A stretch of DNA of 36,929 bases from assembly GCA_041946735.1 (NCBI GenBank), contig JBHGAY010000037.1, forward strand, positions 1 through 36,929. The letters run 5' to 3'. A program made the position numbers and the translations under genes. The stretch is from Candidatus Eiseniibacteriota bacterium (GTDB lineage Bacteria > Eisenbacteria > RBG-16-71-46 > CAIMUX01 > VGJL01). Below the pieces are notes generated by a model. The model worked only from the letters and a program-made list of their open reading frames with translations. It did no database searches and was not told where the DNA came from. Positions 10,054-30,330 of this stretch are shown here, in pieces (the stretch's first letter is position 1; the number at the start of each line of letters is the position of its first letter).

Positions 10054-11223
10054 TCACTCTCCCCCTGCCCGCGCCGCGACCGCCTCGACGCGCACCTTCT
10101 GCAGCGGATGGATCTTGTTGTAGATGCGCTGATTCAGCACGGCCTTGCTGCACGTCGTGAAACACTCGCCGCAGATCCAGCGTCCCGTCGCCGGCATCTC
10201 GATCATCCGACGCCGCAGGTCGCGATAGCGCGCGTTCCACCAGATCTTGTCGAAGTCCTCGTCGAAGATGTTGCCGAGCTTCTCCTCCTCGCAGAAGCAG
10301 CACGGCACGACCGTCCCGTCGGGACCGATGACGCAGAACATCCACGCCTCGTAGCAGGGCAGCTTGCGCTGCAGCGGATTGTCCTGCGCCGTGGCCTCCC
10401 CGGTGCGCGCGCGCAGCGGGAGCTCCTTGGCAAGGTTCCCGAGATCGTGCGCGATCCCGTGTGACTCGAGCTTGCGGCTCCATCCCGGGATCCCCTGGAG
10501 CACCGTCCCGATCTCCGCCTCGCGAAGCTGCAGGTCCCCCGTCTCGGGAAGCTCCGCCATCACGTAGAAGTTGATCTCGTCGATTCCGAGCGCGCAGGCG
10601 TGGTCGATCATCGCCGGAAGATCTCCGGCGTTGTCGCGATTGATGACGTGGCTCACCCGCACCCAGGGAAGCTCACTCCCCGCCGCCTTACGTCGCGCGA
10701 GCACCTCCTCGAGGAACGCGACCGCCTTGTCCCACAGGTCGCGGCCGTTGACCTTCAGGTAGACCTCGCGCGAACCGGCGTTGAGGGAGACGTTCAAGCG
10801 GTCGAGGCGCGACTCGACGAGCGTGGGGGCGAGGTCGGGCTTCGCGAGCGTCGCGTTCGTGACGAGCGCGCAGCGCAGGCCTCCCTGCTTGATGGTCCTG
10901 ACGACAGCGGCCAGCTCCGGATGCGCGATCGGATCCCCCTTGCCGGACAGCTCGACCAGGTCCCCACCGATCCGGGTGAGGCTGCGCACGAGCCGCTCGA
11001 TCGTGGCGAGGTCCATCGTCCGGCGGCCCCCCACGTATTCGCGGCGTGCCGTAATCGGCAGGGCCTGGAGGCTGCCGTGGGACTCGCAGAAGACGCAGCG
11101 GAGATTGCAGTGGTGGGTGATCTCGAGGCTGACGGTCTGCGGACCGACGATCGGACGCCCGGCAGCGATCCCCATCAGGCGCTGCGCGCTGTTCCATTTG
11201 CCCGGAAAGCCAAAGCGATTCAT
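10054..11223 (-). CDS. Radical SAM protein with SPASM/Twitch domain
   Basis: CNLRCVFC (CxxxCxxC); C-terminal CYEAW..IGPDGTVVPCC..LGNI..CGEC; AGGAGG then ATG at 11223. Confidence 0.92.
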   Translation of the reverse strand: MNRFGFPGKWNSAQRLMGIAAGRPIVGPQTVSLEITHHCNLRCVFCESHGSLQALPITARREYVGGRRTMDLATIERLVRSLTRIGGDLVELSGKGDPIAHPELAAVVRTIKQGGLRCALVTNATLAKPDLAPTLVESRLDRLNVSLNAGSREVYLKVNGRDLWDKAVAFLEEVLARRKAAGSELPWVRVSHVINRDNAGDLPAMIDHACALGIDEINFYVMAELPETGDLQLREAEIGTVLQGIPGWSRKLESHGIAHDLGNLAKELPLRARTGEATAQDNPLQRKLPCYEAWMFCVIGPDGTVVPCCFCEEEKLGNIFDEDFDKIWWNARYRDLRRRMIEMPATGRWICGECFTTCSKAVLNQRIYNKIHPLQKVRVEAVAARAGGE

Positions 11224-11636
11224 CCGTCCCCTCCTGCACCGTTTCACGATCGCCGCAAGCCCCACCGTCGTGTACGTGGATCGATACGACAACAGACCAG
11301 TATACCGGCGCCCATGAGCCCGCCCAAGTTCCGGGTCGGTAATCGGGCTGCTGGGTCCGTCATTGGTTCTCGCTCCCCGTTCCTGCCGGATCGCGCCAGC
11401 TCTCGGTTGCTCTCGCACGGCGCTTCGCGCCCCGTCCCTGAGGGGGCCGGGCCGTCCGCTAATTCCGCGGCGGCTCTGGATAAGTTCTTGCATTACTTAT
11501 GACTAATGAGCGGACCTTCATGCCTATCCTCGGGGTAGCCGCACGGTTGCGTATCGAACGCCCGGCTGGCCGCCGGGGCTTCCGCCCAAGGGCCCGGGAT
11601 GAGGATGAGGACGAGGACACCAGTGGGAGAGCCCTG

Positions 11637-12299
11637 ATGAAGCTGCTCCGTTTCCGCCCACAGACCGCAGCCCTGCTGTCACCCCACGCATCGCCGCCCC
11701 CCGACACACGCGTCTTGGCCGCCCCGGATCCGTCGAGAAGGAAGTTCCTCGCAGGCCTGGCTGCCGTCGCCGGCACGATCCTGCTGCCGGGAGTCGGGCG
11801 GGCGATGGATGCGCTGGCTCCCGTTGGAGCCGGAGTCGCGGGGGTCGGTGCGGGGGTCGCCAAGAGCCTTTCGTTCGTTCACCTCCACACGGGAGAGAAG
11901 CTCCGCGTCACCTACTGGGCGGAAGGGGTCTACAAGGCGTCGGGCTTGAGGCAGATCGATCACTTCCTCCGCGACTTCCGCACCGGGGAGGTCATGGCGA
12001 TCGACCGGAAGCTTCTCGACCTGCTCCACGAGCTGCAGAGCGCGCTCGAGACGAACGAGCCGTTCCACGTCGTCTCCGGCTACCGTTCGCCGAAGACGAA
12101 CGCGATGCTCGCCGCGAGCAGCTCGCGTGTCGCGAAGCACTCCCTGCACATGGAGGGACGTGCGATCGACATTCGTGTGCCGGGGGTGAGCTTGCACCTG
12201 CTACGCGACATGGCGCTCGCGATCGAGAAGGGCGGCGTCGGCTTCTATCCGAAGTCGCAGTTCGTGCACGTCGACACGGGTCGCGTGCGCGCCTGGTAG
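11637..12299 (+). CDS. mepK: YcbK/MepK-family (DUF882, peptidase M15) murein endopeptidase with Tat signal
   Basis: SRRKFL twin-arginine motif; HTGE, LRDFRTG, VSGYRSPKTN, SLHMEGRAIDI, FVHVDTGRVRAW. Confidence 0.9.
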   Translation: MKLLRFRPQTAALLSPHASPPPDTRVLAAPDPSRRKFLAGLAAVAGTILLPGVGRAMDALAPVGAGVAGVGAGVAKSLSFVHLHTGEKLRVTYWAEGVYKASGLRQIDHFLRDFRTGEVMAIDRKLLDLLHELQSALETNEPFHVVSGYRSPKTNAMLAASSSRVAKHSLHMEGRAIDIRVPGVSLHLLRDMALAIEKGGVGFYPKSQFVHVDTGRVRAW

Positions 12300-16456: not shown

Positions 16457-17506
16457 TCATCGCGGAGAGCGCCCCATCTGCCGCTTCTTCGGCTTGTCCG
16501 GCTTCTTCGGCTTCTCCGGCGTCTCCAGCCTCTCCGCCTTCTTCGGCGTCTCCGGCTTCTCAGTCTGTTCGGGATCGATCCTGCGTCCTCCCTTCGGGAC
16601 GTGCGCGCGGATCAGGCGGGCGAGGAGACGATAGTCCTCCTGGCGCGGCGCGTTCTTGCGCCAGACGAGGCCGATCCGGCGGCCGGGCGCTGGGCTGGCA
16701 AACTGACGAACCGCGTACATGCGCGTCTCGCGCGGCTCGCACTCGACCGCGATCCGCGGAAGCAGGGTCACTCCGGCGCCGCTCGCGACCATCTGCACGA
16801 GCGTCGGAAGGCTGGTCGCCCGAAAGTCCGCCTGCTCGCGCGCGCCCGCGCCCCGGCAGACTTCGAGCGCCTGATCGCGAAGGCAGTGGCCGTCCTCGAG
16901 GAGAAGCACCTCCTCCCCTTCGAGATCGCCGGTCTCCACCTTCCCCTTGCGCGCGAGCCGATGGCCGGACGGTGCAGCGAGCAGGAACTCGTCGGAGAAG
17001 AGAGACGCTTTCGCCAGATCGGACGATGGCACCGGCAGGGCGAGCACGGCCGCATCGAGCCGGCCGTTCTCGAGGCGGTCGAGCAGGCGGGATGTCTGTT
17101 CCTCCAGCAGGAGCAGCCGCAGCTGCGGGTACTTTTCGCGGGCAGCCGGCAAGATCGACGGAAGCAGGTACGGCGCGACCGTCGGGATCACGCCGAGCCG
17201 GAGGGTCCCGGTCAGCGGCGGCCGATGGGAACGCGCTGCTTCCCTCACCCGGTCGGCCGCAGCGAGGACCTCGCGCGCGCCTGCGATCACCTCTGCCCCC
17301 GCGGCGGTCGGCAGAACGCGGCGACGATCGCGCTCGAAGAGCCGGACTCCGAGCGTGCGCTCGAGCTCCGCGATCTGCCCGCTCAGCGCCGGCTGGCTCA
17401 CGAAACACGCTTCGGCGGCCTTGCGAAAGTTCCGCGTCTCCGCAAGGGCGAGCAGGTATTCGAGCTGACGGATCGTAGGACGGACCGTGGGACGGACCGA
17501 AGGCAT
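16457..17506 (-). CDS. oxyR: Hydrogen peroxide-responsive LysR regulator OxyR
   Basis: LysR HTH (IRQLEYLLAL..FRKAAEACFVSQPALS); LEDGHCLRDQALEVC with both redox cysteines; RATSLPTL; divergent from ahpC. Confidence 0.93.
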   Translation of the reverse strand: MPSVRPTVRPTIRQLEYLLALAETRNFRKAAEACFVSQPALSGQIAELERTLGVRLFERDRRRVLPTAAGAEVIAGAREVLAAADRVREAARSHRPPLTGTLRLGVIPTVAPYLLPSILPAAREKYPQLRLLLLEEQTSRLLDRLENGRLDAAVLALPVPSSDLAKASLFSDEFLLAAPSGHRLARKGKVETGDLEGEEVLLLEDGHCLRDQALEVCRGAGAREQADFRATSLPTLVQMVASGAGVTLLPRIAVECEPRETRMYAVRQFASPAPGRRIGLVWRKNAPRQEDYRLLARLIRAHVPKGGRRIDPEQTEKPETPKKAERLETPEKPKKPDKPKKRQMGRSPR

Positions 17507-17571
17507 CTTCCCCCTCCTGGCGACCTGCGCCGCGCTACGCGCCCGCCTTGCGCGCGGGCGCGCTCCTCTTG

Positions 17572-17608
17572 ATAGCCACAGCCTATCACACACATACGAA
17601 AGAGCGAT
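17572..17608. promoter_or_regulatory. OxyR operator
   Basis: ATAG-N7-CTAT-N7-ATAC-N7-CGAT, 14 of 16 matches to the ATAG-N7-CTAT-N7-ATAG-N7-CTAT consensus, between oxyR and ahpC. Confidence 0.8.
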
Positions 17609-17835
17609 TGGATCTTATCACCACGCGGGGGCGATCCTGTGGATGTGCCGCAGGGACGCGCGAGGGCGATTGCGAGGCCGGTGCGCGAGGGGCGAGCGGC
17701 ACCCCGCCTTGGGAGGACCCAGGCGGCGGGACGAGGCAAGGACGAGCCGTGAGCGAGTAATAACCAAGCCATGACCGAGCCACGAGAACCTGCGAAAACG
17801 AGCCAGAGTCTGCACCAATAAGGAGGATCCGAGAG

Positions 17836-18375
17836 ATGCTTACAGTCGGCGACCGCTTTCCCGCCTTCCATCTGAAGGGGGTCGTGTCCAACGACATGAC
17901 GAATGCGTTCCAGGAGTTCCGGGAGACCTCGTTCCCGGATCGCTGGAAGGTCTACTTCTTCTGGCCGAAGGACTTCACGTTCATCTGCCCGACCGAGATC
18001 GCCGAGTTCGGCAAGCTCGACGCCGAGTTCCGCGATCGCGACGCGCAGATCCTCGGCATCAGCACGGACAGCGAGTACGTCCATCTGGCGTGGCGGCGCC
18101 AGCATCCCGACTTGAAGGCGCTTCCGTTCCCGATGCTCGCCGACATCCGCAAGGACCTCGCGGGCGCGCTCGGGATCCTCGACAAGGAGGAGGCGGTCGC
18201 GCTCCGGGCGACCTTCGTCGTCGATCCGAGCGGGATCATCCGTCATGTATCGGTCAACGACCTGAACGTCGGGCGCAACCCGCAGGAGGTCCTTCGCACG
18301 CTCGACGCCCTGCAGACCGACGAGCTCTGCCCCTGCAACTGGAAGCCCGGCCAGGAGACGCTGCAACCGGCCTGA
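17836..18375 (+). CDS. ahpC: Peroxiredoxin, alkyl hydroperoxide reductase C
   Basis: FWPKDFTFICPTE and TDELCPCNW; AGGAGG RBS. Confidence 0.96.
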   Translation: MLTVGDRFPAFHLKGVVSNDMTNAFQEFRETSFPDRWKVYFFWPKDFTFICPTEIAEFGKLDAEFRDRDAQILGISTDSEYVHLAWRRQHPDLKALPFPMLADIRKDLAGALGILDKEEAVALRATFVVDPSGIIRHVSVNDLNVGRNPQEVLRTLDALQTDELCPCNWKPGQETLQPA

Positions 18376-18441
18376 GGCCGCGGCGGGCGCCCTCCGCGCC
18401 GCGCCGCGCGCCCCGGCGGGCGCCGGTGCGGTTGGCGGTCC

Positions 18442-18499
18442 GAGAACCAGGCGGGCAGGAGAACCAGACGGCACGGTGCCAAACGGGCAGGAGAACCAG
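18442..18499 (+). repeat. Three short direct repeats in the ahpC-ahpD spacer
   Basis: GAGAACCAG occurs three times, twice within CGGGCAGGAGAACCAG. Confidence 0.6.
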
Positions 18500-18511
18500 T
18501 CAGGAGGGAGA

Positions 18512-19135
18512 ATGGTCGATCTCGAATCGTTGAAGGCAAGCATTCCCGAGTACGCGAAGGATCTCCGCTTCAACCTGGGGACGATCGCGAGCTCCGCGCA
18601 GCTGACCGAGCAGCAGATCTGGGGCGCCGCGCTCGCCTCGGCGCTCGCCTCTCGCCAGCCGGACGTGATCCGCGCGATCGCCGCTGAGGCGGAACGCCGC
18701 ATGAGCCCCGGCGCGTTCGCGGCCGCGAAGGGCGCTGCGGCGATCATGGGGATGAACAATGTCTACTACCGCTTCACGCATCTGACGACGGACGGCGACT
18801 ACGGGAGCATCCCGGCGCGCTTGCGAATGCAGCTCATCGCCCGCCCCGGCGTCGATCCGCCTGACTTCGACCTCTGGAGCTTCGCTGCCTCCGCGGTCAA
18901 CGGCTGCGGCGCGTGCATGGACTCCCACGCCCGGGACGTCCTCGCGAAGGGCGGCACGAAGGCGATGGTGCAGGAGACGGCTCGCATCGCCTCGATCGTG
19001 CATGGGATCGCCGTCACGATCTGCGGCGAGCGCGCGATCGCCGGCGCGGGGGCCGAGCCGGATGCGCAAACCGCCGCAGAGGCCGGCGCGCAGATCGCCG
19101 GAGGGACGGCCGCGGCCACGCCTTCCCCCGCCTGA
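18512..19135 (+). CDS. ahpD: Alkylhydroperoxidase AhpD
   Basis: PEYAKDLRFNL, MGMNNVYYRF, SAVNGCGACMDSH (CxxC); follows ahpC. Confidence 0.95.
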   Translation: MVDLESLKASIPEYAKDLRFNLGTIASSAQLTEQQIWGAALASALASRQPDVIRAIAAEAERRMSPGAFAAAKGAAAIMGMNNVYYRFTHLTTDGDYGSIPARLRMQLIARPGVDPPDFDLWSFAASAVNGCGACMDSHARDVLAKGGTKAMVQETARIASIVHGIAVTICGERAIAGAGAEPDAQTAAEAGAQIAGGTAAATPSPA

Positions 19136-19471
19136 GAGCGGAACCCACGTCCCGGAGACGACTGCGCGCGCCGAACAACGATTGGGCGGCTGCCCAGCGG
19201 CGGCCGGCGCCGGGGCGCCGCCCGTGCCGCCCGTGCCGCCCGGCACCCCTCTGCACCCGCCGCCGCCTCTCGGCCGCCGCCTCTCGGGCGGCCGATCGCC
19301 CTTCCCACCTCCCACCCGCCAAGCCCAGACCCCCGCCCTCTTTCGACATATCGTGCGGCTGCCCTCTGGACGGCCGGACCGCGATCGTGGATCGTGTTCC
19401 GTTCCTCTTGCACGAGGCGGCGGCGAGGAGCGATCGCTCGCCGCGCGGCGCAGCAACGGAGGCGCAGCGGC

Positions 19472-21853
<2,382 letters not shown>

Positions 21854-22253: not shown

Positions 22254-23456
22254 ATGCCCGTGAGATCGAATCAGACTGCCCGACCAGCCGAGAGACATCA
22301 GCTCACCGTTGCCGGCTTGTTCGCCGGCATTGGCGGAATCGAGCTGGGCCTCGATCGTGCCGGTCACAACACCGCGCTCCTTTGTGAAATCGACCCTGGC
22401 GCCTCCCGGGTCCTCCGTAAGCGGTTTCCATCGGTTCCACTAGTCGATGACGTACGTGCGATCGAGGCGCTGCCAAGAGTGGACCTCGTCGCAGCCGGCT
22501 TCCCTTGCCAGGACCTTTCGCAGGCGGGGAAAACCGCAGGCATCCGGGGTGAGCAATCGGGTTTGGTCGGACAGGTCTTCCGACTCCTCGATTCTCGCAA
22601 ACGCCCTCCAAAGTGGCTGTTGCTCGAGAACGTCTCCTTCATGCTGCAGCTGGATCGCGGCCGGGGGATGACGTTCCTCGTCAATGAACTCGAGCGGCGG
22701 GGCTTCAGTTGGGCGTATAGGATCGTCGATACTCGGTCCTTCGGACTTCCACAGCGTCGCCAGCGGGTTATCCTCCTCGCGTCGAAGTCCGAGGACCCTC
22801 GCAGCGTCCTCCTCACCGATGACGCCGGCCCGGGGGAAACTAGGTTCAGCCAGAGTGTGTGGTGCGGTTTCTACTGGACCGAAGGGCTCCGGGGCCTTGG
22901 ATGGGCCATCGACGCCGTTCCGACGCTCAAGGGAGGTTCCACAGTCGGGATCCCGTCGCCCCCCGCCATCTGGGACCCCCGCGGGGGAGACATCATGACC
23001 CCGGAGATTCGAGATGCAGAGCGATTGCAGGGCTTCGATGCAGACTGGACCCATCCGGCCCTCGACGGCCCGGGGGTCCGCCGAGGCCATCGATGGAAGC
23101 TCGTTGGCAATGCCGTCAGCGTTCCCGTGGCTGCATGGGTGGGCGAGCGGCTGGCGCGACCGGCCCGCTTCTCGATCGCCAGCCAGGATTCCTTCCTCGA
23201 CCGGACCACGGTTTGGCCGAAGGCGGCATGGGGTCACAAAGGGAAGGTGTATCCCGTGCATCTATCTATGTGGCCGGTGAGGAGCAAGACGCAGCACTTG
23301 GCCGACTTCCTCGAATACCCCCTCTGTTCACTCTCGCCCAGGGCAGCCGCTGGATTCCTCTCTCGGGCCGAGACGAGCAGTCTCCGTTTCGAGAAGGGCT
23401 TCTTGGATGACGTCCGTAGGCACATCGAGAGGACGTCGAGAGAAGCAATCGGATGA
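22254..23456 (+). CDS. DNA (cytosine-5) methyltransferase
   Basis: LFAGIGG, GFPCQDLS, LLENV, PQRRQRV, ERLQGF, VGNAV; GGAGG then ATG 22254. Confidence 0.95.
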   Translation: MPVRSNQTARPAERHQLTVAGLFAGIGGIELGLDRAGHNTALLCEIDPGASRVLRKRFPSVPLVDDVRAIEALPRVDLVAAGFPCQDLSQAGKTAGIRGEQSGLVGQVFRLLDSRKRPPKWLLLENVSFMLQLDRGRGMTFLVNELERRGFSWAYRIVDTRSFGLPQRRQRVILLASKSEDPRSVLLTDDAGPGETRFSQSVWCGFYWTEGLRGLGWAIDAVPTLKGGSTVGIPSPPAIWDPRGGDIMTPEIRDAERLQGFDADWTHPALDGPGVRRGHRWKLVGNAVSVPVAAWVGERLARPARFSIASQDSFLDRTTVWPKAAWGHKGKVYPVHLSMWPVRSKTQHLADFLEYPLCSLSPRAAAGFLSRAETSSLRFEKGFLDDVRRHIERTSREAIG

Positions 23457-24232
23457 ATCCGAGACGGAAGGGAAGCAGAACCCCGATCGAACCGGCCAGG
23501 ATCGACGGAATCTCGCTCCTAAAAGGTGTGCTCGAAAGAAGCCGTCGCGACGTCGAGGAAGCAAGAAGCCAAACCAAGAAGAAAGATCGATTCAAGCCGG
23601 ATCTCAAGTTCGCGATATCTTTCGCAAAGCACTTCGGTACCGAGCTCGCCCGCGTCCTTGATCCTCTCTTCCCCGGCATACGAAGCGGTGAGATCCCGTC
23701 GAAAACCGCACGAGGCATGAAACGGGTCGACCTCAGCTACAGCACGGCCGAGACCGGCTTGGCTCTCGGACTCTCCTTCAAGTCCGTGCACAAAGGTGAG
23801 AACGAAGAGGGCAATGCCCGGTTCATCCACAACATGAAGCGGAACGACGAAGAGCTCCGGGTGGAGGCGACGTCTCACCACCTACGACAGCCGTATGCCG
23901 TTCTCATCGCAATCGTCTTCCTGCCATTCGAGAGCTGCGACGACGCGGAAACTTCGTCGTTTGCCAGGTGGGTGGAATATCTGTGGCCTCTCAAGGGCCG
24001 TAGCGAACCCGAGGATGCCCCAGATCGGTTCGAGTTGGTGTTCATGTCCCTCTATGCTCGGGACGGTAGTGATCTCGGTTTTTACGAGGTCGGAGGACCG
24101 GAGCCGTGCCCTAGAAAGGGACGTCCGGAGCATCTGCTGTCTCTAGAGGAGTTCGTTCGCCGACTCAAGGAAGTCTACGACCGTCGCAATGGCAATGACT
24201 TCTACTTCAAGGGTGAAGAGCCACAAGCCTGA
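23453..24232 (+). CDS. Putative PD-(D/E)xK-type restriction endonuclease
   Basis: ATGA overlap with the methyltransferase; sits between MTase and vsr; KRVDLSY..GLSFKS..NMKRNDEELRVE resembles a nuclease core. Confidence 0.65.
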   Translation: MNPRRKGSRTPIEPARIDGISLLKGVLERSRRDVEEARSQTKKKDRFKPDLKFAISFAKHFGTELARVLDPLFPGIRSGEIPSKTARGMKRVDLSYSTAETGLALGLSFKSVHKGENEEGNARFIHNMKRNDEELRVEATSHHLRQPYAVLIAIVFLPFESCDDAETSSFARWVEYLWPLKGRSEPEDAPDRFELVFMSLYARDGSDLGFYEVGGPEPCPRKGRPEHLLSLEEFVRRLKEVYDRRNGNDFYFKGEEPQA

Positions 24233-24665
24233 CCGGCCCTCGCCATCGTCTCCCGAGGCGCGGAATCGGATGCTCGCCACACGAAGACGGGATACGCCCG
24301 AGGAGGTGCAGCTCAGGTCGCGGCTTCACCGAATGGGGTTGCGTTTCCGAGTCGACTGGCCGATTCCAGGTTCGAGGCGGCGCGCAGACATCGCCTTTGT
24401 CCGTCCGAGGGTCTTGGTCTTCGTCGATGGGTGCTTCTGGCATGGCTGCCCGAAGCACGGAACTTGGCCCAAGGCAAACGCGGCTTGGTGGCGACAGAAG
24501 ATCGAAGGAAACATCGTACGGGACCGCGACACCGACGCGGTCCTCCGATCTGGGGGGTGGTTGGTCCTCCGCTTCTGGGAGCACGATGATCTGAGGGCCG
24601 CGGCGAGAGAAGTGGCTGACGCGGTTCGGAGGAGGATGGACCGCTCGGGTCAGACGCGGGTGTAG
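24189..24665 (+). CDS. vsr: Very short patch repair endonuclease
   Basis: RRRDTPEE, GLRFRV, RADIAF, FVDGCFWHGCP, NIVRDR, GWLVLRFWEH; exact start uncertain. Confidence 0.93.
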   Translation: MAMTSTSRVKSHKPDRPSPSSPEARNRMLATRRRDTPEEVQLRSRLHRMGLRFRVDWPIPGSRRRADIAFVRPRVLVFVDGCFWHGCPKHGTWPKANAAWWRQKIEGNIVRDRDTDAVLRSGGWLVLRFWEHDDLRAAAREVADAVRRRMDRSGQTRV

Positions 24666-24748
24666 CTCCAGGGGTCCCGTTTGCGGTCTTGCCAGGGCCC
24701 GCGGCGCCCGGATCGACATGCCGCCCACGACCTCAAGCGGGACCGCCC

Positions 24749-24777
24749 TTTACAGCCGCGCCTCCGGTGGCTACTCT
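24749..24777 (+). promoter_or_regulatory. Putative sigma70 promoter of the sulfur-relay operon
   Basis: TTTACA-N17-TACTCT upstream of AGGAG and ATG 24843. Confidence 0.5.
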
Positions 24778-24842
24778 CTTTCACGGTGCCCACGAGGGTG
24801 GGGGACGACGGGGTGGGGGTTCCTGCAGACAGGAGTACGGGC

Positions 24843-25163
24843 ATGCCTACGATCGACTTCGGCGGCCGCTCGCTCGAGCTGAACGACGAGGGGTTCCTTC
24901 TCCACCCTGAGGAGTGGAACGAGGATCTCGCTCTCGAGCTGGCTCGCAAGGCGGAGAAACTGGACTCGCTGACCGACGAGCACTGGGCGGTCATCCGCTT
25001 CATTCGCAGCTACTTCGAGGAGAAGCAGTCGGCGCCGATGGTGCGCTCGGTCTGCAAGTCGACCGGGCTCCCGCTCCGGCGGATCTACGAGCTGTTCCCA
25101 TCCGGGCCCGCCAAAGGGGCCTGCAAGCTGGCCGGGCTTCCGAAGCCGGACGGCTGCGTCTAG
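24843..25163 (+). CDS. DsrC/TusE-family sulfur carrier with both C-terminal cysteines (C-X10-C)
   Basis: NDEGFL..EEWNE, LTDEHWAVIRFIR, YELFPSGPAKGACKLAGLPKPDGCV. Confidence 0.93.
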   Translation: MPTIDFGGRSLELNDEGFLLHPEEWNEDLALELARKAEKLDSLTDEHWAVIRFIRSYFEEKQSAPMVRSVCKSTGLPLRRIYELFPSGPAKGACKLAGLPKPDGCV

Positions 25164-25172
25164 GGCCGCGCC

Positions 25173-25793
25173 GTGCCGGGCCCGCTTGCCATCGGAGTCA
25201 TCGCGCTCGCACTGTGGGCGGTCGCGGGTCTCGCCGCGCAGCTCGTCGCCGCCCGCGGGTGGGGGCAGCGCACCGCCTACGCCGTTCCCGCCGGACGGCC
25301 GCGTTCCGGAATCCTCTACATGCTCGGTCCTGGCATGTCGCCGACGGCGAAGGAGAGCGCCCGGCTGCACTTCGGAACCTGGCTCGCCGGGGTCGGCTAC
25401 CATGCCGGCATCGCCGGCGGATTTGCCGCGCTCCTGCTCGTCCTCGCGAGAGTCGAGCTGAGCGGAGCGGCGCTGCGCGCCGTCCAGGCGATGCTCGCCG
25501 CCGGCCTGGCCGGCGGAGTCTTCCTTCTCGTCAAGAGGATCGCGCGCCCGCCGATGCGCCGGCTGAGCCACCCCGACGACTACATCGCCAACGGCCTCAC
25601 CACCGGCTTCGTCGCGCTCGCGTTCGCCCGCACGCTCTGCCCGGCCGCGGAGGTCCCGTGGCTGGGGCTCGCGATGCTCCTCTTCCTGTACGTTCCGATC
25701 GGGAAGATCCGGCACTGCTTCTTCTTCTTTGCGACACGCATCCACGCAGGGACCTTCTTCGGCCGGCGGGGGGTGCTCCCGCCGCACGCTTGA
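25173..25793 (+). CDS. NarI/DsrM-like membrane subunit, putative cytochrome b
   Basis: Several TM segments; YHAG, RRLSHPDDY, LYVPIGKIRH; located between dsrC-like and dsrK-like genes; GTG start. Confidence 0.75.
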   Translation: MPGPLAIGVIALALWAVAGLAAQLVAARGWGQRTAYAVPAGRPRSGILYMLGPGMSPTAKESARLHFGTWLAGVGYHAGIAGGFAALLLVLARVELSGAALRAVQAMLAAGLAGGVFLLVKRIARPPMRRLSHPDDYIANGLTTGFVALAFARTLCPAAEVPWLGLAMLLFLYVPIGKIRHCFFFFATRIHAGTFFGRRGVLPPHA

Positions 25794-25813
25794 GAGACCG
25801 GAGCGGCATCGTC

Positions 25814-27169
25814 ATGGCAGGGGAACCGACGACGCACACCGACGAGATCGAAGCCCGGCTGGCGGCGATGACGCCCGAGGACTTCCGTCGCGGGATGGAG
25901 ATCTTCCGCTCGAAGCTGCGCGAGAGCGAGGTCGACTACCTGAAGAGCTGCGTGCGCTGCGGCCTTTGCGCCGAGTCGTGCCACTACTTCCTCAGCGACG
26001 GCGAAGCCGACTCGATCCCGGCCTCGAAGCTCGACGTCGTGGCCTCGGCGTTCCAGCGGCACTTCACGATCGCCGGCCGGATCGCGCCGGGACTATCCGG
26101 CGCCCGCCGATTCGACCGCGCCCTCGCCCGCCGCTGGGTCGACGCGGTCTTCGGCCGATGTAGTCTCTGCGGTCGATGTAGTCTCCAGTGCACCATGGGA
26201 ATCCATATCCCCTCCGTCCTTCGAGCCGCTCGCGGAACCCTCACCGAACTCGGACTCATCCCCTCGGACCTCCTCGCCACCGTCCAAGCCTCCCTCGACA
26301 AGGGCAACAACATGGGGATCGAGCGGCAGGACTGGATCGAGACGATCGAGTGGCTCGAGGAGGAGCTGCAGACGGCGACGGGCGATCCGAACGCGAGGAT
26401 CCCGATCGACCGGCACGGGGCGCGCTATCTCTTCACCGTCAATCCGAGGGAGCCGAAGTTCTTCCCGTTGACCCTGCTCGCCAGCGCGACCGTCCTGCAC
26501 GCGGCGAAGGAGGACTGGACGGTCGCGAGCGAGGGCTGGGACCTGACGAACTACGGCCTCTTCAGCGGAAGCGCCGCGCAAGGTGGACCGATCTCGGCGC
26601 AGATGCTCGCGTCGATGGACCGGCTCGGGTGCGGGACGCTCCTGATGGGCGAATGCGGCCACGGCTTCGCAGCCGCGCGCTGGGAGGCCCCCGAGTGGCT
26701 TCAGCGCACGCCCGCCTTCCCGATCCGCTCCTTCCTGGAGGTGATGGAGGAGTACCTGCGGGACGGACGGATCCGAGTCGACCCAAGCAGGAATCCCGAG
26801 CCGGTGACGCTCCACGATCCCTGCAATCTCGTGCGCCACGGCGGCGTCTTCGAGCCGCAACGGGAGATCCTGCGGAGGAGCGTCGCCCGCTTCGTGGAGA
26901 TGACACCGAACCGCGCGGAGAACTACTGCTGCGGCGGAGGCGGCGGCCAGCTTTCGATGGGACGCTACAAGGAGCGGCGCCTGCGCGCCGGCGGGATCAA
27001 GGCGGAGCAGATCCGGCGGACGGGCGCGAAGATCGTCGTCGCCCCCTGCCACAACTGCATCGATCAGCTCATGGAGCTGAACAAGGAGTACGAGCTCGGC
27101 GTGTCGATCCAGACGGTCGCCGAGGTCGTGTCGAATGCGCTCGTGTTCGAGTCCCCGGTCGCGGGGTGA
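25814..27169 (+). CDS. DsrK/HmcF/HdrD-like Fe-S oxidoreductase with CCG domain
   Basis: CVRCGLCAESC and CSLCGRCSLQC ([4Fe-4S] motifs); TNYGLF, GECGHG, HDPCN, NYCCGGGGG, APCHNC. Confidence 0.92.
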   Translation: MAGEPTTHTDEIEARLAAMTPEDFRRGMEIFRSKLRESEVDYLKSCVRCGLCAESCHYFLSDGEADSIPASKLDVVASAFQRHFTIAGRIAPGLSGARRFDRALARRWVDAVFGRCSLCGRCSLQCTMGIHIPSVLRAARGTLTELGLIPSDLLATVQASLDKGNNMGIERQDWIETIEWLEEELQTATGDPNARIPIDRHGARYLFTVNPREPKFFPLTLLASATVLHAAKEDWTVASEGWDLTNYGLFSGSAAQGGPISAQMLASMDRLGCGTLLMGECGHGFAAARWEAPEWLQRTPAFPIRSFLEVMEEYLRDGRIRVDPSRNPEPVTLHDPCNLVRHGGVFEPQREILRRSVARFVEMTPNRAENYCCGGGGGQLSMGRYKERRLRAGGIKAEQIRRTGAKIVVAPCHNCIDQLMELNKEYELGVSIQTVAEVVSNALVFESPVAG

Positions 27170-27179
27170 GAGGAGAGCC

Positions 27180-28466
27180 ATGACGCACGCGCTCGACAAG
27201 GTCGCGAAGGGACGGGAGATCGCGGAGCCGAACGCCGGCGGGAAGCAAGACCCCGCGGGAGAGGAAGAGGCGGAACCGATGCTCGAAGCTTCCAATCTGA
27301 TCTACCTTGACAACGGGGCAACCTCCTTCCCCAAGCCGCCCGAGGTCTACGATTTCATGGACCGCTTCTACCGCCACTACGGCGTCAATCCGGGCCGCTC
27401 CGGCTATGACATCTGCATCGAGTCGGGCAACATGGTCGAGGAGACCAGGCGGATGCTGTGCCGTTTCTTCGGCGGCACCGTGCCCGAACGGGTCGTCTTC
27501 GGCCAGAACGCGACCGACGCGCTCAACCTCTCGATCTTCGGGCTGCTCCGTCCCGGCGACCATGCGATCACGACCCACCTCGAGCACAACTCCGTGATCC
27601 GTCCCCTCTGGCATCTGCAAGAGGAGGGAGTCGAGGTCGACTGGGTCGACTTCGATGATCGCGGCTATGTCGATCCGGAGGAGATCGCGCGCCGGATCCG
27701 GCCGAATACGAAGGCGGTCGTGATGAATCACGGCAGCAACGTGATCGGGACGGTGCAACCGGTCGGCGCCGTCGGGCGGATCTGCCGGGATCGTGGCATT
27801 CCGCTCGTCGTAGACGTCTCGCAGACCGCCGGCATGATCCCGATCGACATGGAGGCGATGTCGATCGACGTCGTCTGCTTCACCGGACACAAGTCGCTGA
27901 TGGGGCCGATGGGAGTCGGCGGCATGTGCGTGCGCGACGGCCTCGACATCCGTCACACCAGGGCCGGCGGCACCGGCGTCCGGAGCGCGCAGCGCCGCCA
28001 CCTCGACGAGTACCCGTACCGGATGGAGTACGGAACTCCGAACCTCCCCGGGATCGCGGGGCTCCACGCGGGCGTGAAGTGGGTGCTCCAGCGCGGGATC
28101 GACGCGATCCACGCGCACGAGATGGCGCTCTGGAAGCGGCTTCGGGACGGGCTCGCGGCGATCGACGGCGTCATCCTCTACTGCCAGGACTCCGCCGAGA
28201 ACCACACGAGCGTTCTCGCATGGAACGTCGAAGGGATGGAGGCGGGCGACGCCGGCACGATGCTCGACGTCGATTACGACATCGCCTGCCGCACCGGGCT
28301 CCACTGCGCGCCGATGGTCCACGAGCACCTCGGGACGGACAAGATCCATGGCGCGGTACGGTTCGCGATCGGCGCCTTCAACACCGAGGCGGAGATCGAT
28401 CATGCAATCCGGGCGGTGGAAGCGATCGTCGGGACGCGGAAGAAGGGGCGGAACGCCGGACGTTGA
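27180..28466 (+). CDS. Cysteine desulfurase family (class V PLP enzyme)
   Basis: IYLDNGATSFPKP, LEHNS, NHGSNVIG, DVSQTAG, FTGHKSLMGP, EYGTPN, RTGLHCAP (catalytic Cys); alternative start at MLEASN. Confidence 0.92.
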   Translation: MTHALDKVAKGREIAEPNAGGKQDPAGEEEAEPMLEASNLIYLDNGATSFPKPPEVYDFMDRFYRHYGVNPGRSGYDICIESGNMVEETRRMLCRFFGGTVPERVVFGQNATDALNLSIFGLLRPGDHAITTHLEHNSVIRPLWHLQEEGVEVDWVDFDDRGYVDPEEIARRIRPNTKAVVMNHGSNVIGTVQPVGAVGRICRDRGIPLVVDVSQTAGMIPIDMEAMSIDVVCFTGHKSLMGPMGVGGMCVRDGLDIRHTRAGGTGVRSAQRRHLDEYPYRMEYGTPNLPGIAGLHAGVKWVLQRGIDAIHAHEMALWKRLRDGLAAIDGVILYCQDSAENHTSVLAWNVEGMEAGDAGTMLDVDYDIACRTGLHCAPMVHEHLGTDKIHGAVRFAIGAFNTEAEIDHAIRAVEAIVGTRKKGRNAGR

Positions 28467-28499
28467 CGAAGACGAAGACGACGAAGACGAAGACGAAGA
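28465..28499 (+). repeat. GACGAA-type simple repeat after the desulfurase stop codon
   Basis: GACGAA GACGAA GAC GACGAA GACGAA GACGAA GA. Confidence 0.7.
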
Positions 28500-28644
28500 G
28501 CTGACCCGCCCGCGCATCCGCTGGTCTAGGCTAGGACCGCATCGGCCGCCGTGTGCGACCGCCCCGGAGCTACGCCGTCCGGGGCGATGGCAAGGCGCCG
28601 AGGATACATACCCATATGCCTTTCATCCATCCAGGAGGTGCTGC

Positions 28645-30330
28645 ATGAAGCCTTGTTCGTTAGCCGGCGCTGCTCTTTTCGTGCTTCTTGCCGTCGCCGT
28701 TCCGCTGGTTGCCCACGGGCTGCCGCTCGTCGAATCGATCGAAGGTCCGGACGGCGCCCGGCTCGTTCGGTCTCTCACTCCCGCGCAGGAACAACCGGCG
28801 CTTCCCTTGCCGGTCGCCGGCGCGCAGGGTCCGGCCGCGCGCGATGCGAACGACTACCTGTGGATCGACACGAACCACCAGGACGCGATCGCCGAGGACG
28901 TGGCGATCACCGGGGACGGCGTCTCGGTGTTCGCCGGATGGTGGCTGAACAACAAGCGTGTCGCGCTCTATACATTCGCCGGCGATGCCGCCCCCGAATG
29001 GACATTCCCGATGTCTCTCGCCGAATTCCAGATCCGCGTCGATGCTGACGACTCGGGCGACCGGCTGACGGCGACGGGCCGAGGCGAGCCGCTCTACGTC
29101 TTCGACGAGGGCTCGAACGTCCCGCTCTTCACCGAGGGATACGGCGGCGGTTCTCTCGTCGGCTACTGGTGCGCGGTCTCCGACGGCGGCGAGACGATCG
29201 CCGCGGCCGCCGGGAATCCCGCCGGAGGCGAGGGTGCGGTCTTCGTCTACTCGGGGGACGGCCAGCTCCGCTTCACCCGCTCGCTCCCTGCGCCCCCCGA
29301 AGGGCTCGCGCTCTCGGAGGACGGCCACGTGGTTGCGGCGAACGTCCGGACCTTCGTGAAGATCTGGGACGCGGACACCGGAGCGCTGCGCGATTCGGTC
29401 GCGATCCCGGGCGAGACGCAGGTGCCTGCGGTTCTTTCGGCGGATGGCTCGGTCCTCGTGACCGGCGGATTCAGCCGGACGGTCCGCGTCTATCGATGGA
29501 CCGGGGCCGCGTACGAAGCCGCCTGGTCGCACGCGATCCCCTCGACGACATGGATCACCGCGCTCGACGTCTCCGAGGACGGGTCGACGATCGCCGCCGG
29601 CACCTGGACCAGCCCCGAGGGGGGCAAGGTCGTGCTCTACGACGCCGGTTCGAGCACGCCGCTTTGGACCGATAGCTCCTACGGCGACGAAGTGGCCTCG
29701 GTCGCGTTCACGCCGAACGGCCAGTTGCTCGCCGCCGGCTCCTGGGGCCGCTACAACGCGACGGTCGGCAACGTCATCACCGTCTATCACCGCGACGGGT
29801 CGCTCTTGTACAACATGCAGGACGATGCGGTCCCCGGCATCGGATCCTGCTTCGACGTGGAGATCAGCGAGACGGGCACCCATCTCGTTGCCGGCGGCAA
29901 GGCGGTCCACGCGCGCGAATTCGGACGGGGCGGCTTCGTCGTGGCGATCGACCTGCAGAATCCGGCGAACGTCGAGGAGGTTTCGCTCCCCGGCATCGAT
30001 CACGGCCTCTCCGCCTACCCCAATCCGTTCCGCGGCGCGGTCCGCTTCGAGACACGCCGCGCGAGCGCGGGCGCGAGCGTCAGCGGGGCGGTGGGCGGCG
30101 GCAACGCTGCGGACGGAGGCGAGATGGGTGCCGTTCTTGGACCGCTCGCCGTGTACGGCGCGGACGGGCGGCTCATTCGCTCGCTGGCCGCCGACCCGGT
30201 CGACGGCGGATGGATCTGGGACGGCCGGGACGAACGTGGCCGAGAGGTGCCTCCCGGGGTCTACTTCGCCGTCCGTTCCGGTTCGCGGGGAGCGACCGGC
30301 GAAGGTTTGCGCATCTTGCGGATTCGCTGA
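28645..30330 (+). CDS. Secreted WD40-like beta-propeller protein with C-terminal FlgD-Ig-like domain
   Basis: AGGAGG then ATG 28645; signal peptide; repeated VSxDGxxxAA blades; AYPNPF..VYGADGRLIRSL..WDGRDERGREVPPGVYF. Confidence 0.88.
   Translation: MKPCSLAGAALFVLLAVAVPLVAHGLPLVESIEGPDGARLVRSLTPAQEQPALPLPVAGAQGPAARDANDYLWIDTNHQDAIAEDVAITGDGVSVFAGWWLNNKRVALYTFAGDAAPEWTFPMSLAEFQIRVDADDSGDRLTATGRGEPLYVFDEGSNVPLFTEGYGGGSLVGYWCAVSDGGETIAAAAGNPAGGEGAVFVYSGDGQLRFTRSLPAPPEGLALSEDGHVVAANVRTFVKIWDADTGALRDSVAIPGETQVPAVLSADGSVLVTGGFSRTVRVYRWTGAAYEAAWSHAIPSTTWITALDVSEDGSTIAAGTWTSPEGGKVVLYDAGSSTPLWTDSSYGDEVASVAFTPNGQLLAAGSWGRYNATVGNVITVYHRDGSLLYNMQDDAVPGIGSCFDVEISETGTHLVAGGKAVHAREFGRGGFVVAIDLQNPANVEEVSLPGIDHGLSAYPNPFRGAVRFETRRASAGASVSGAVGGGNAADGGEMGAVLGPLAVYGADGRLIRSLAADPVDGGWIWDGRDERGREVPPGVYFAVRSGSRGATGEGLRILRIR

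Follow-up and report, generated by a model that had tools for sequence, protein, structure and literature searches.

The closest described relatives of the system analysed here, a cluster of four genes at positions 24843-28466 of a 36,929-nt stretch of DNA from a Candidatus Eiseniibacteriota bacterium (contig JBHGAY010000037.1, assembly GCA_041946735.1; the whole stretch is called the window below), are the sulfur carrier DsrC and the membrane complexes DsrMK and DsrMKJOP. DsrMKJOP, whose DsrM is a dihaem cytochrome b, reduces the DsrC trisulfide with menadiol; the catalytic subunit DsrK shares with HmcF and TmcB two ferredoxin 4Fe-4S motifs, one CX(n)CCX(n)CXXC motif and a (T/G)ECGH cysteine (PMC10861901). 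In the electron cryo-microscopy structure of DsrMKJOP from A. fulgidus, the DsrC arm enters DsrK with the sulfane sulfur on its last Cys, and the GECGH Cys is seen as a persulfide (preprint 10.64898/2026.08.25.746951). A further relative is EtfD, with five helices, one haem b on His78 and His241, arginines at the haem propionates and menaquinone at a distance of 4-5 A from this haem (PMC13083937).

The window operon encodes a DsrC, a small membrane anchor, a DsrK-like iron-sulfur protein and, in the last position, a cysteine desulfurase, within a genome in which we found no dsrA. We propose that these four genes form one sulfur-redox unit without sulfite reductase, in which a persulfide that the desulfurase would place on DsrC is reduced to sulfide with menaquinol, and we give this reading a probability of about 0.5. 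The conserved linkage of the genes and the absence of dsrAB favour such a scheme, in which DsrC would take up cysteine sulfur for exchange with the quinone pool of the membrane. A literature search found no paper describing a DsrC-anchor-DsrK-like-desulfurase operon, and subscription-only papers outside its reach could mention it.

Components of the operon

The first gene (24843-25163, on the forward strand like the other three, as placed by the listing of open reading frames (ORFs) and the family scans) encodes a DsrC of 106 aa. It scored 120.5 bits against PF04358 (cut-off 24.9, E 5e-35) and 105.1 bits against TIGR03342 (cut-off 53.5), and only 70.4 bits against the TusE equivalog NF008562, below its cut-off of 191. 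Its best matches in the PDB were true DsrC proteins of sulfite reducers (E 2e-31 to 1e-22, the best being 2xsj_C at E 2e-31), and a TusE-like chain matched only at E 1e-7. Both C-terminal cysteines, C94 and C105, which had been pointed out in an earlier, sequence-only reading of this DNA, are indeed there and are invariant in 70/70 aligned rows (window and homologues), in a tail of the form C94-x10-C105-V. The C-terminus AGLPKPDGCV differs in one position (Thr to Asp) from AGLPKPTG..C, the C-terminal motif that DiSCo uses for DsrC with one difference allowed (PMC8477390). This Asp103 (PKPDGCV) was invariant in 34/34 cluster-linked DsrC rows, and Thr stands at that position in the four canonical DsrC compared. 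Cys71, also invariant in the cluster-linked proteins, was considered as a signature of the group and rejected, since a canonical DsrC beside dsrAB in the phylum has it as well.

The usual partner of DsrC, DsrAB, is missing from the genome; in other words, this is a DsrC of the dissimilatory type without DsrAB. The assembly (4.89 Mb in 72 contigs, 94.8% complete) contains a single DsrC gene and a single DsrK-like gene. A genome-wide profile search did not find dsrA and, for dsrB, gave nothing over the cut-off, only weak ferredoxin-like matches, so that the absence of dsrAB first noted for the window extends to the whole genome. No DsrJ, DsrO or DsrP is encoded in the operon, to which the search for these three was confined. 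MenA is present (206 bits, cut-off 102), and its gene lies ca. 4 kb from a full-length class-V aminotransferase/desulfurase paralogue other than that of the operon (G000:C72:91550-97381, with the paralogue at C72:96293-97381). On another contig (G000:C21, minus strand; L004 690-2244) a TusA-like domain fused to OsmC is encoded beside a 256-aa ORF with a C-terminal DsrE-like domain, a small pair, related to sulfur or stress, that is not a TusBCD or DsrEFH set.

The last gene (27180-28466) encodes a cysteine desulfurase of 428 aa, apparently dedicated to this operon. It scored 421.8 bits against TIGR01977 (EF2568 type, cut-off 377), and the Lys of 'GHKS' that would bind pyridoxal phosphate (PLP) and the Cys of 'GLHC' were invariant in 34/34 rows, which agrees with the intact PLP Lys and catalytic Cys described from the sequence. 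The protein is closer to SufS (family score 238 bits) than to the IscS (145 bits) or NifS models, and its 316.4 bits against the selenocysteine lyase model SclA (NF040779) remain under the cut-off of 525. The genome has five full-length class-V aminotransferase paralogues, the operon desulfurase among them, which makes the latter an extra copy. Its start codon is ambiguous: residues 1-33, counted from the ATG at 27180, are not conserved, the similarity to homologues begins at M34 (27279), and purine-rich stretches precede both candidate ATGs. With the second start the protein has 395 aa. The gaps of 9 and 20 bp that had been given between genes 1-2 and 2-3 are correct, and the 10-bp gap given before the desulfurase stands only with the ATG at 27180, ca. 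109 bp being possible with the other. A complex prediction with two desulfurase copies and DsrC gave a score of 0.02 (mark 0.32), and we have counted it neither way.

The third gene (25814-27169) encodes what would be the cytoplasmic iron-sulfur catalytic subunit, a DsrK/TmcB/HmcF-like protein of 451 aa matching PF02754 (CCG, 43 bits) and PF13183. It has the motifs for two cubane 4Fe-4S clusters, one CCG motif (noncubane 4Fe-4S cluster) and the GECGH cysteine. C46/49/52/56, C116/119/122, C281, H283 and C337/372/373/412/415 were invariant in 75/75 aligned rows and C126 was conserved at 0.99, all of which bears out the earlier description as a DsrK/HmcF-like CCG protein. The protein nevertheless belongs to none of the named equivalogs, scoring 288 bits against HmcF (NF045711, cut-off 750), 278 against TmcB (NF045724, cut-off 735) and 231.5 against DsrK (NF045796, cut-off 400), a model against which the true DsrKs of the phylum score 717-727. 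Its identity to these true DsrKs (L099, L101) is 28-30%, and that to a DsrK-like protein and a partial TmcB in the dsrAB-bearing genomes of the phylum is 32-33%. The sole match by sequence in the PDB was EtfD (9ojn, E 4e-12). In a quick tree the 84 cluster-linked sequences were separated from two DsrKs and one DsrK-like protein (SH-aLRT, an approximate likelihood-ratio support, of 94). The partial TmcB was nearest, at the base of the cluster group, with its placement left unresolved by the tree, where its branch and that of the L100 row are very long. The non-canonical DsrK placement on which the sequence-only reading depended is therefore what both the score and the tree gave.

The second gene (25173-25793) encodes the membrane anchor, 206 aa with five transmembrane helices. 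A Pfam scan gave no family match and the other family matches were weak (HmcE at 2e-6, and TmcC). Its AlphaFold model (predicted local distance difference test, pLDDT, 95.6) matched NarI (1q16_C) with a Z of 12.5 and a root-mean-square deviation (rmsd) of 5.1 A over 162 aligned residues in a VIA-align wide search, and EtfD of M. smegmatis (9ojn_A, residues 9-258) with a Z of 10.8 and an rmsd of 3.3 A over 192 residues; the next structural match had a Z of 6.5. Foldseek against the PDB returned nothing at E <= 0.001, the top 8 being all NarI at E 0.02-0.08. The only invariant His residues are H77 and H181 (60/60 rows), and R122 and R129 are invariant as well. A profile search paired H77 with H56 of NarI, and the segment 'PlgKirH' with 'PFSRLIH205' of NarI. 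We take H56 and H205 of NarI to be the ligands of its cytoplasm-side haem.

DsrM, TmcC and the TmcC-like protein of the phylum's dsrAB genomes have an extra His in helix 2 and a His 18 residues before the last one, and at these positions of the distal pair there was no His in 5/5 cluster anchor representatives aligned with them. The four His ligands of a dihaem DsrM/NarI/HdrE protein, one pair in helix 2 and the other in or behind helix 5, are thus not all present in the anchor. Of the description as a NarI/DsrM-like membrane protein the NarI fold stood, and the likeness to DsrM was weakened by the lack of a Pfam match and of the second His pair of DsrM/NarI. New here is that, of the two His pairs of dihaem DsrM/TmcC, only one is left in the membrane subunit. 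Together with the superposition on one-haem EtfD, this makes the anchor probably a one-haem cytochrome b talking to menaquinone, that is, a non-electrogenic quinone module with its quinone site probably near the cytoplasmic face. With an anchor of this type, a redox loop building proton-motive force at this enzyme is unlikely.

Conservation and surroundings of the gene cluster

Homologues of the DsrK-like protein number in the thousands, and the closest (63-74% identical) come from metagenome-assembled genomes of Eisenbacteria, Thermoanaerobaculaceae and Holophaga. A pattern scan limited to one genome for each species brought up 123 relatives; 80 loci from several phyla were retained and classified by tblastn with the four window proteins. 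In 43 of these 80 loci DsrC, anchor, DsrK-like protein and desulfurase are encoded on one strand in the order of the window, and in 9 more the first three genes are followed by a convergent desulfurase, within 131 bp in 8 of the 9. Seven loci are cut off upstream, yet have the DsrK-like gene and the desulfurase; in 15 the locus has no desulfurase, and 6 break off immediately after the DsrK-like gene. Altogether, a desulfurase orthologue on either strand lies beside the DsrK-like gene in 59 of the 74 loci that are not cut downstream. For 18 genomes (the 15 loci without desulfurase and 3 of the 6 cut ones) the search was extended to the whole genome, and 15 of them contain an orthologue of 63-69% identity elsewhere, in several cases a few kb further along the contig of the locus.

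A similar picture was found inside the phylum of the window, where 28/206 genomes have the DsrK-like gene (E <= 1e-100) and 26 of these 28 also have a desulfurase at least 50% identical to that of the window, usually on the same contig. Among ten divergent DsrK-like copies of the phylum (42-57% identity), eight have DsrC, anchor and DsrK-like gene closely followed by the desulfurase (seven convergent, one divergent); of the remaining two, one shows only a fragment of the desulfurase, at the outer end of its stretch, and the other (L095) is without DsrC and desulfurase. The linkage therefore persists in copies with 43-50% DsrK-like identity, and the gene order, whose conservation across phyla the sequence-only reading had wanted to see checked, is conserved. 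The four-gene linkage is not due to chance.

None of the 80 carrier genomes yielded dsrA (0/50 and 0/30). As a positive control, the same search recovered a dsrA above the cut-off from two genomes of the phylum, plus a dsrA cut at the contig end from a third, and all three are without the desulfurase-linked clade. The phylum of the window thus includes true sulfite reducers that lack this clade. Two genomes of the phylum (contigs G098:C7 and G095:C6; L099-L102) carry full canonical sets of dsrAB, dsrC and dsrMK(JOP); G095 also has TmcC beside the partial TmcB, and G098 a TmcC-like anchor beside a DsrK-like protein.

A conserved fifth gene was sought among the neighbours of the 80 loci and none was found. 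A PALP-family (CysK-like) gene directly follows the desulfurase in ca. 10 of the 80, mostly from Holophagaceae (e.g., L022:7624-8820, L026:7594-8736, L050:7206-8276 and ca. 7 more), and not in the window; it is a second link to cysteine metabolism. The phosphate-transport neighbours seen in Aminicenantes look incidental.

The sequence-only reading had placed a sigma70-like promoter before the operon, which we could not recover: a scan of 24400-28800 gave no sigma70-like site, and its two terminator-like matches were not above the level of shuffled sequence. Its statement that the window has no isc, suf or mnmA gene holds for the four operon proteins and 17 further ORFs scanned by Pfam, the other ORFs of the window lying outside that scan. 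The gene after the desulfurase encodes a WD40 beta-propeller protein (28348-30330 as listed) and overlaps the 3' end of the desulfurase by ca. 120 bp; a signal-peptide-like stretch ca. 100 residues into this ORF suggests a later true start. A restriction-modification-like island (22296-24665) directly precedes the operon and has a G+C content of 0.60-0.64, compared with ca. 0.68-0.72 in the surroundings. It contains a C-5 cytosine methylase (Dcm, 22296-23456), a Vsr mismatch endonuclease (24189-24665) and a 259-aa ORF without Pfam match (23453-24232) that is possibly the endonuclease. Further upstream (16457-19135) a LysR-type regulator on the minus strand is divergent from AhpC/peroxiredoxin and CMD (AhpD-like) genes; this peroxide-defence pair lies a few kb from the operon, with a Ser/Thr kinase with TPR repeats (19394-21853) between them. 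At 10054-12299 a radical SAM/SPASM enzyme on the minus strand adjoins a DUF882/peptidase M15 gene.

Proposed route and its alternatives

The proposed route would start with the chemistry of the desulfurase family, the PLP enzyme converting L-cysteine to L-alanine and holding the sulfur as a persulfide on its own Cys. DsrC would then take up the sulfane sulfur on Cys105 of its flexible C-terminal arm, a step that the conserved linkage suggests and in which DsrC would take the role that SufE, SufU or CsdE have for other SufS-like desulfurases. By analogy with DsrK, the arm would enter the DsrK-like subunit, and the sulfur would be reduced to H2S at the single noncubane 4Fe-4S cluster with the assistance of the GECGH Cys; a persulfide on Cys105 made in this way would be chemically close to the arm intermediate of A. 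fulgidus. Alternatively, Cys94 might expel H2S first and the resulting DsrC disulfide would then be reduced. The electrons would come from menaquinol via the one-haem b anchor, with a quinone site near the cytoplasmic face as in EtfD, a step for which part of the evidence is sequence and part fold. The net reaction would be cysteine + menaquinol to alanine + H2S + menaquinone, and the enzyme would act as an electron sink without generating proton-motive force of its own. Such a cycle from cysteine to sulfide would close with all four proteins and known chemistry only. Using formation free energies attributed to Thauer (1977), we roughly estimate E0' of the couple cysteine/(alanine + H2S) at ca. 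-105 mV. Menaquinone has a potential of ca. -74 mV, and with the two values so close the reaction would be feasible at low product levels.

Several points weigh against this proposal. We infer both the sulfur transfer to DsrC and the coupling to quinone, and the number of haems in the anchor is read from ligands and fold. If the anchor is of the one-haem, non-electrogenic type, the direction would be set by the potentials alone; the reduction of a persulfide by menaquinol may be uphill, and a flow from DsrC to menaquinone fits the anatomy equally well. Cells already have simpler cysteine desulfhydrases, and the benefit of the route is unproven. Furthermore, 15 of the 74 examinable loci have no desulfurase nearby, 2 loci have no DsrC nearby, and 3 of the 18 genomes followed up gave no desulfurase with the window query.

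There are four other explanations to be considered. One would be that the same proteins work in the opposite direction, with the DsrK-like subunit oxidising the DsrC persulfide together with Cys94 (to a trisulfide or disulfide) and two electrons passing to menaquinone, so that cysteine sulfur is the donor. The anchor does resemble EtfD, which feeds electrons into menaquinone, organic trisulfides have potentials of ca. -346 mV (PMC10861901), so that their formation with menaquinone as oxidant would be downhill, and in sulfur oxidisers, for which this direction has been proposed, DsrMK(JOP) oxidises persulfurated DsrC according to the DiSCo paper (PMC8477390). However, nothing known resolves a DsrC trisulfide without DsrAB, and dsrA is absent from the window genome and from 80/80 carriers. 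There is no conserved fifth gene either (the commonest, PALP, is found in ca. 10/80), and without DsrAB or such a gene the oxidative cycle would not close with the four proteins. We consider this direction unlikely.

The second explanation, which seems to us quite unlikely, is a biosynthetic relay: desulfurase and DsrC would feed a thio-cofactor, tRNA or Fe-S target (cf. IscS-Tus-MnmA), and the membrane module would re-reduce DsrC that had been oxidised off the pathway. Desulfurases normally supply biosynthesis, the protein belongs to the DsrC/TusE family, and DsrE-like and TusA-like-OsmC genes are found elsewhere in the genome. However, the window protein has both Cys, it falls far short of the TusE model (70 against 191 bits) and it matches dissimilatory DsrC far better than the TusE-like chain. 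The unit has no conserved neighbour that could be an acceptor enzyme (e.g., MnmA or ThiI), and its patchy presence (28/206 genomes of the phylum) is unlike that of housekeeping genes. No biosynthetic sulfur relay is known to have a quinone-linked membrane partner.

We regard as improbable that the desulfurase is a NifS-like maturation factor serving the Fe-S clusters of the DsrK-like protein, with DsrC loaded or oxidised by other means, e.g., cellular persulfides or polysulfide. Dedicated desulfurases beside complex Fe-S enzymes are known, NifS being an example, and the DsrK-like protein has three clusters, one of them an unusual noncubane one. However, there was no scaffold of the NifU, IscU or SufU type among the neighbour genes common to several of the 80 loci, and four other full-length class-V paralogues are available for housekeeping. 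Besides, the canonical DsrMK operons near dsrAB in the phylum do without such a desulfurase, within the stretches blasted with that of the window. Finally, a selenium route, in which the enzyme would be a SclA-like selenocysteine lyase (TIGR01977 family) and DsrC would carry selenium towards SelD, is very improbable. In its favour, SclA is the second-best family match, and the SelD of the genome (G000:C2:108941-109867, minus strand), probably a selenoprotein, has one in-frame TGA. However, the 316 bits of the SclA match fall short of the cut-off of 525, the neighbourhood of the cluster has no conserved selenium gene, and SelD occurs in 191/206 genomes of the phylum, many with the same TGA, carriers or not, leaving no co-variation to read.

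Returning to the reduction of DsrC-bound cysteine sulfur with menaquinol, the four-gene unit points to an undescribed route from cysteine sulfur to the quinone pool, with sulfide as the most likely end product. Only tentatively do we go further and suggest an undescribed, widespread pathway of respiratory type, with free cysteine as the terminal electron acceptor via desulfurase, DsrC and a one-haem DsrMK/EtfD-like complex.

Significance and comparison with described systems

DsrC and DsrMK serve as marker genes for dissimilatory sulfite/sulfate reduction and sulfur oxidation. What we find is a stable unit free of DsrAB in many uncultured Acidobacteriota, Eisenbacteria, Zixibacteria, Latescibacterota and relatives, and scoring its DsrC/DsrMK-type genes as potential for sulfate reduction would therefore be misleading. 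If the proposed route is true, anaerobes across many phyla would turn cysteine into sulfide and alanine and re-oxidise their quinone pool in this way, and in sediments, peat and digesters a quinone-linked reaction would add sulfide that stems from organic sulfur. DsrC would accept sulfur from a second donor, and DsrC and modules of the DsrMK type would have a role independent of sulfite reduction, perhaps an older one. The unit would also offer a simple two-subunit, one-haem system in which to study how a single noncubane cluster reduces protein-bound sulfane sulfur.

Among the described systems, DsrC with DsrMK/DsrMKJOP (menaquinol:DsrC-trisulfide reductase) is alike in the two-Cys DsrC, the membrane partner of NarI fold, the gene order C-M-K and the catalytic subunit, which has two cubane clusters, a single CCG motif and both the Cys and the His of GECGH. 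It differs in that the genome of the window has no DsrAB, the sulfur input would be a cysteine desulfurase and the operon has no DsrJOP. The anchor, with 206 aa and one His pair, is also unlike the dihaem DsrM, whose model has 320 positions, and the DsrC ends in PKPDGCV and not in the canonical PKPTGCV. Both subunits score best with the families of the TmcBC and HmcEF modules, which belong to the Tmc and Hmc complexes of Desulfovibrio and have an anchor of similar size. However, the scores lie far below the equivalog cut-offs of 750 and 735, there are no cytochrome c partners (TmcA, HmcA), DsrC and the desulfurase are linked instead, and the TmcC of the phylum has four His where the window anchor has two.

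Mycobacterial EtfD (9ojn, ETF:menaquinone oxidoreductase; ETF, electron transfer flavoprotein) shares the five-helix membrane domain combined with an iron-sulfur domain of the ferredoxin and CCG type. Its parts are fused in a single polypeptide, its two CCG domains have shielded, non-catalytic clusters, and it works with ETF (PMC13083937), whereas the window system consists of two genes, has one CCG motif with a GECGH Cys of the catalytic type and would have DsrC as its partner. Lastly, the pairs SufS-SufE, SufS-SufU and CsdA-CsdE resemble it in that a SufS-like desulfurase is encoded beside a small protein with an exposed acceptor Cys. In the window, however, the acceptor would be the unrelated DsrC, and the pair is tied to a membrane redox module and not to an Fe-S scaffold.

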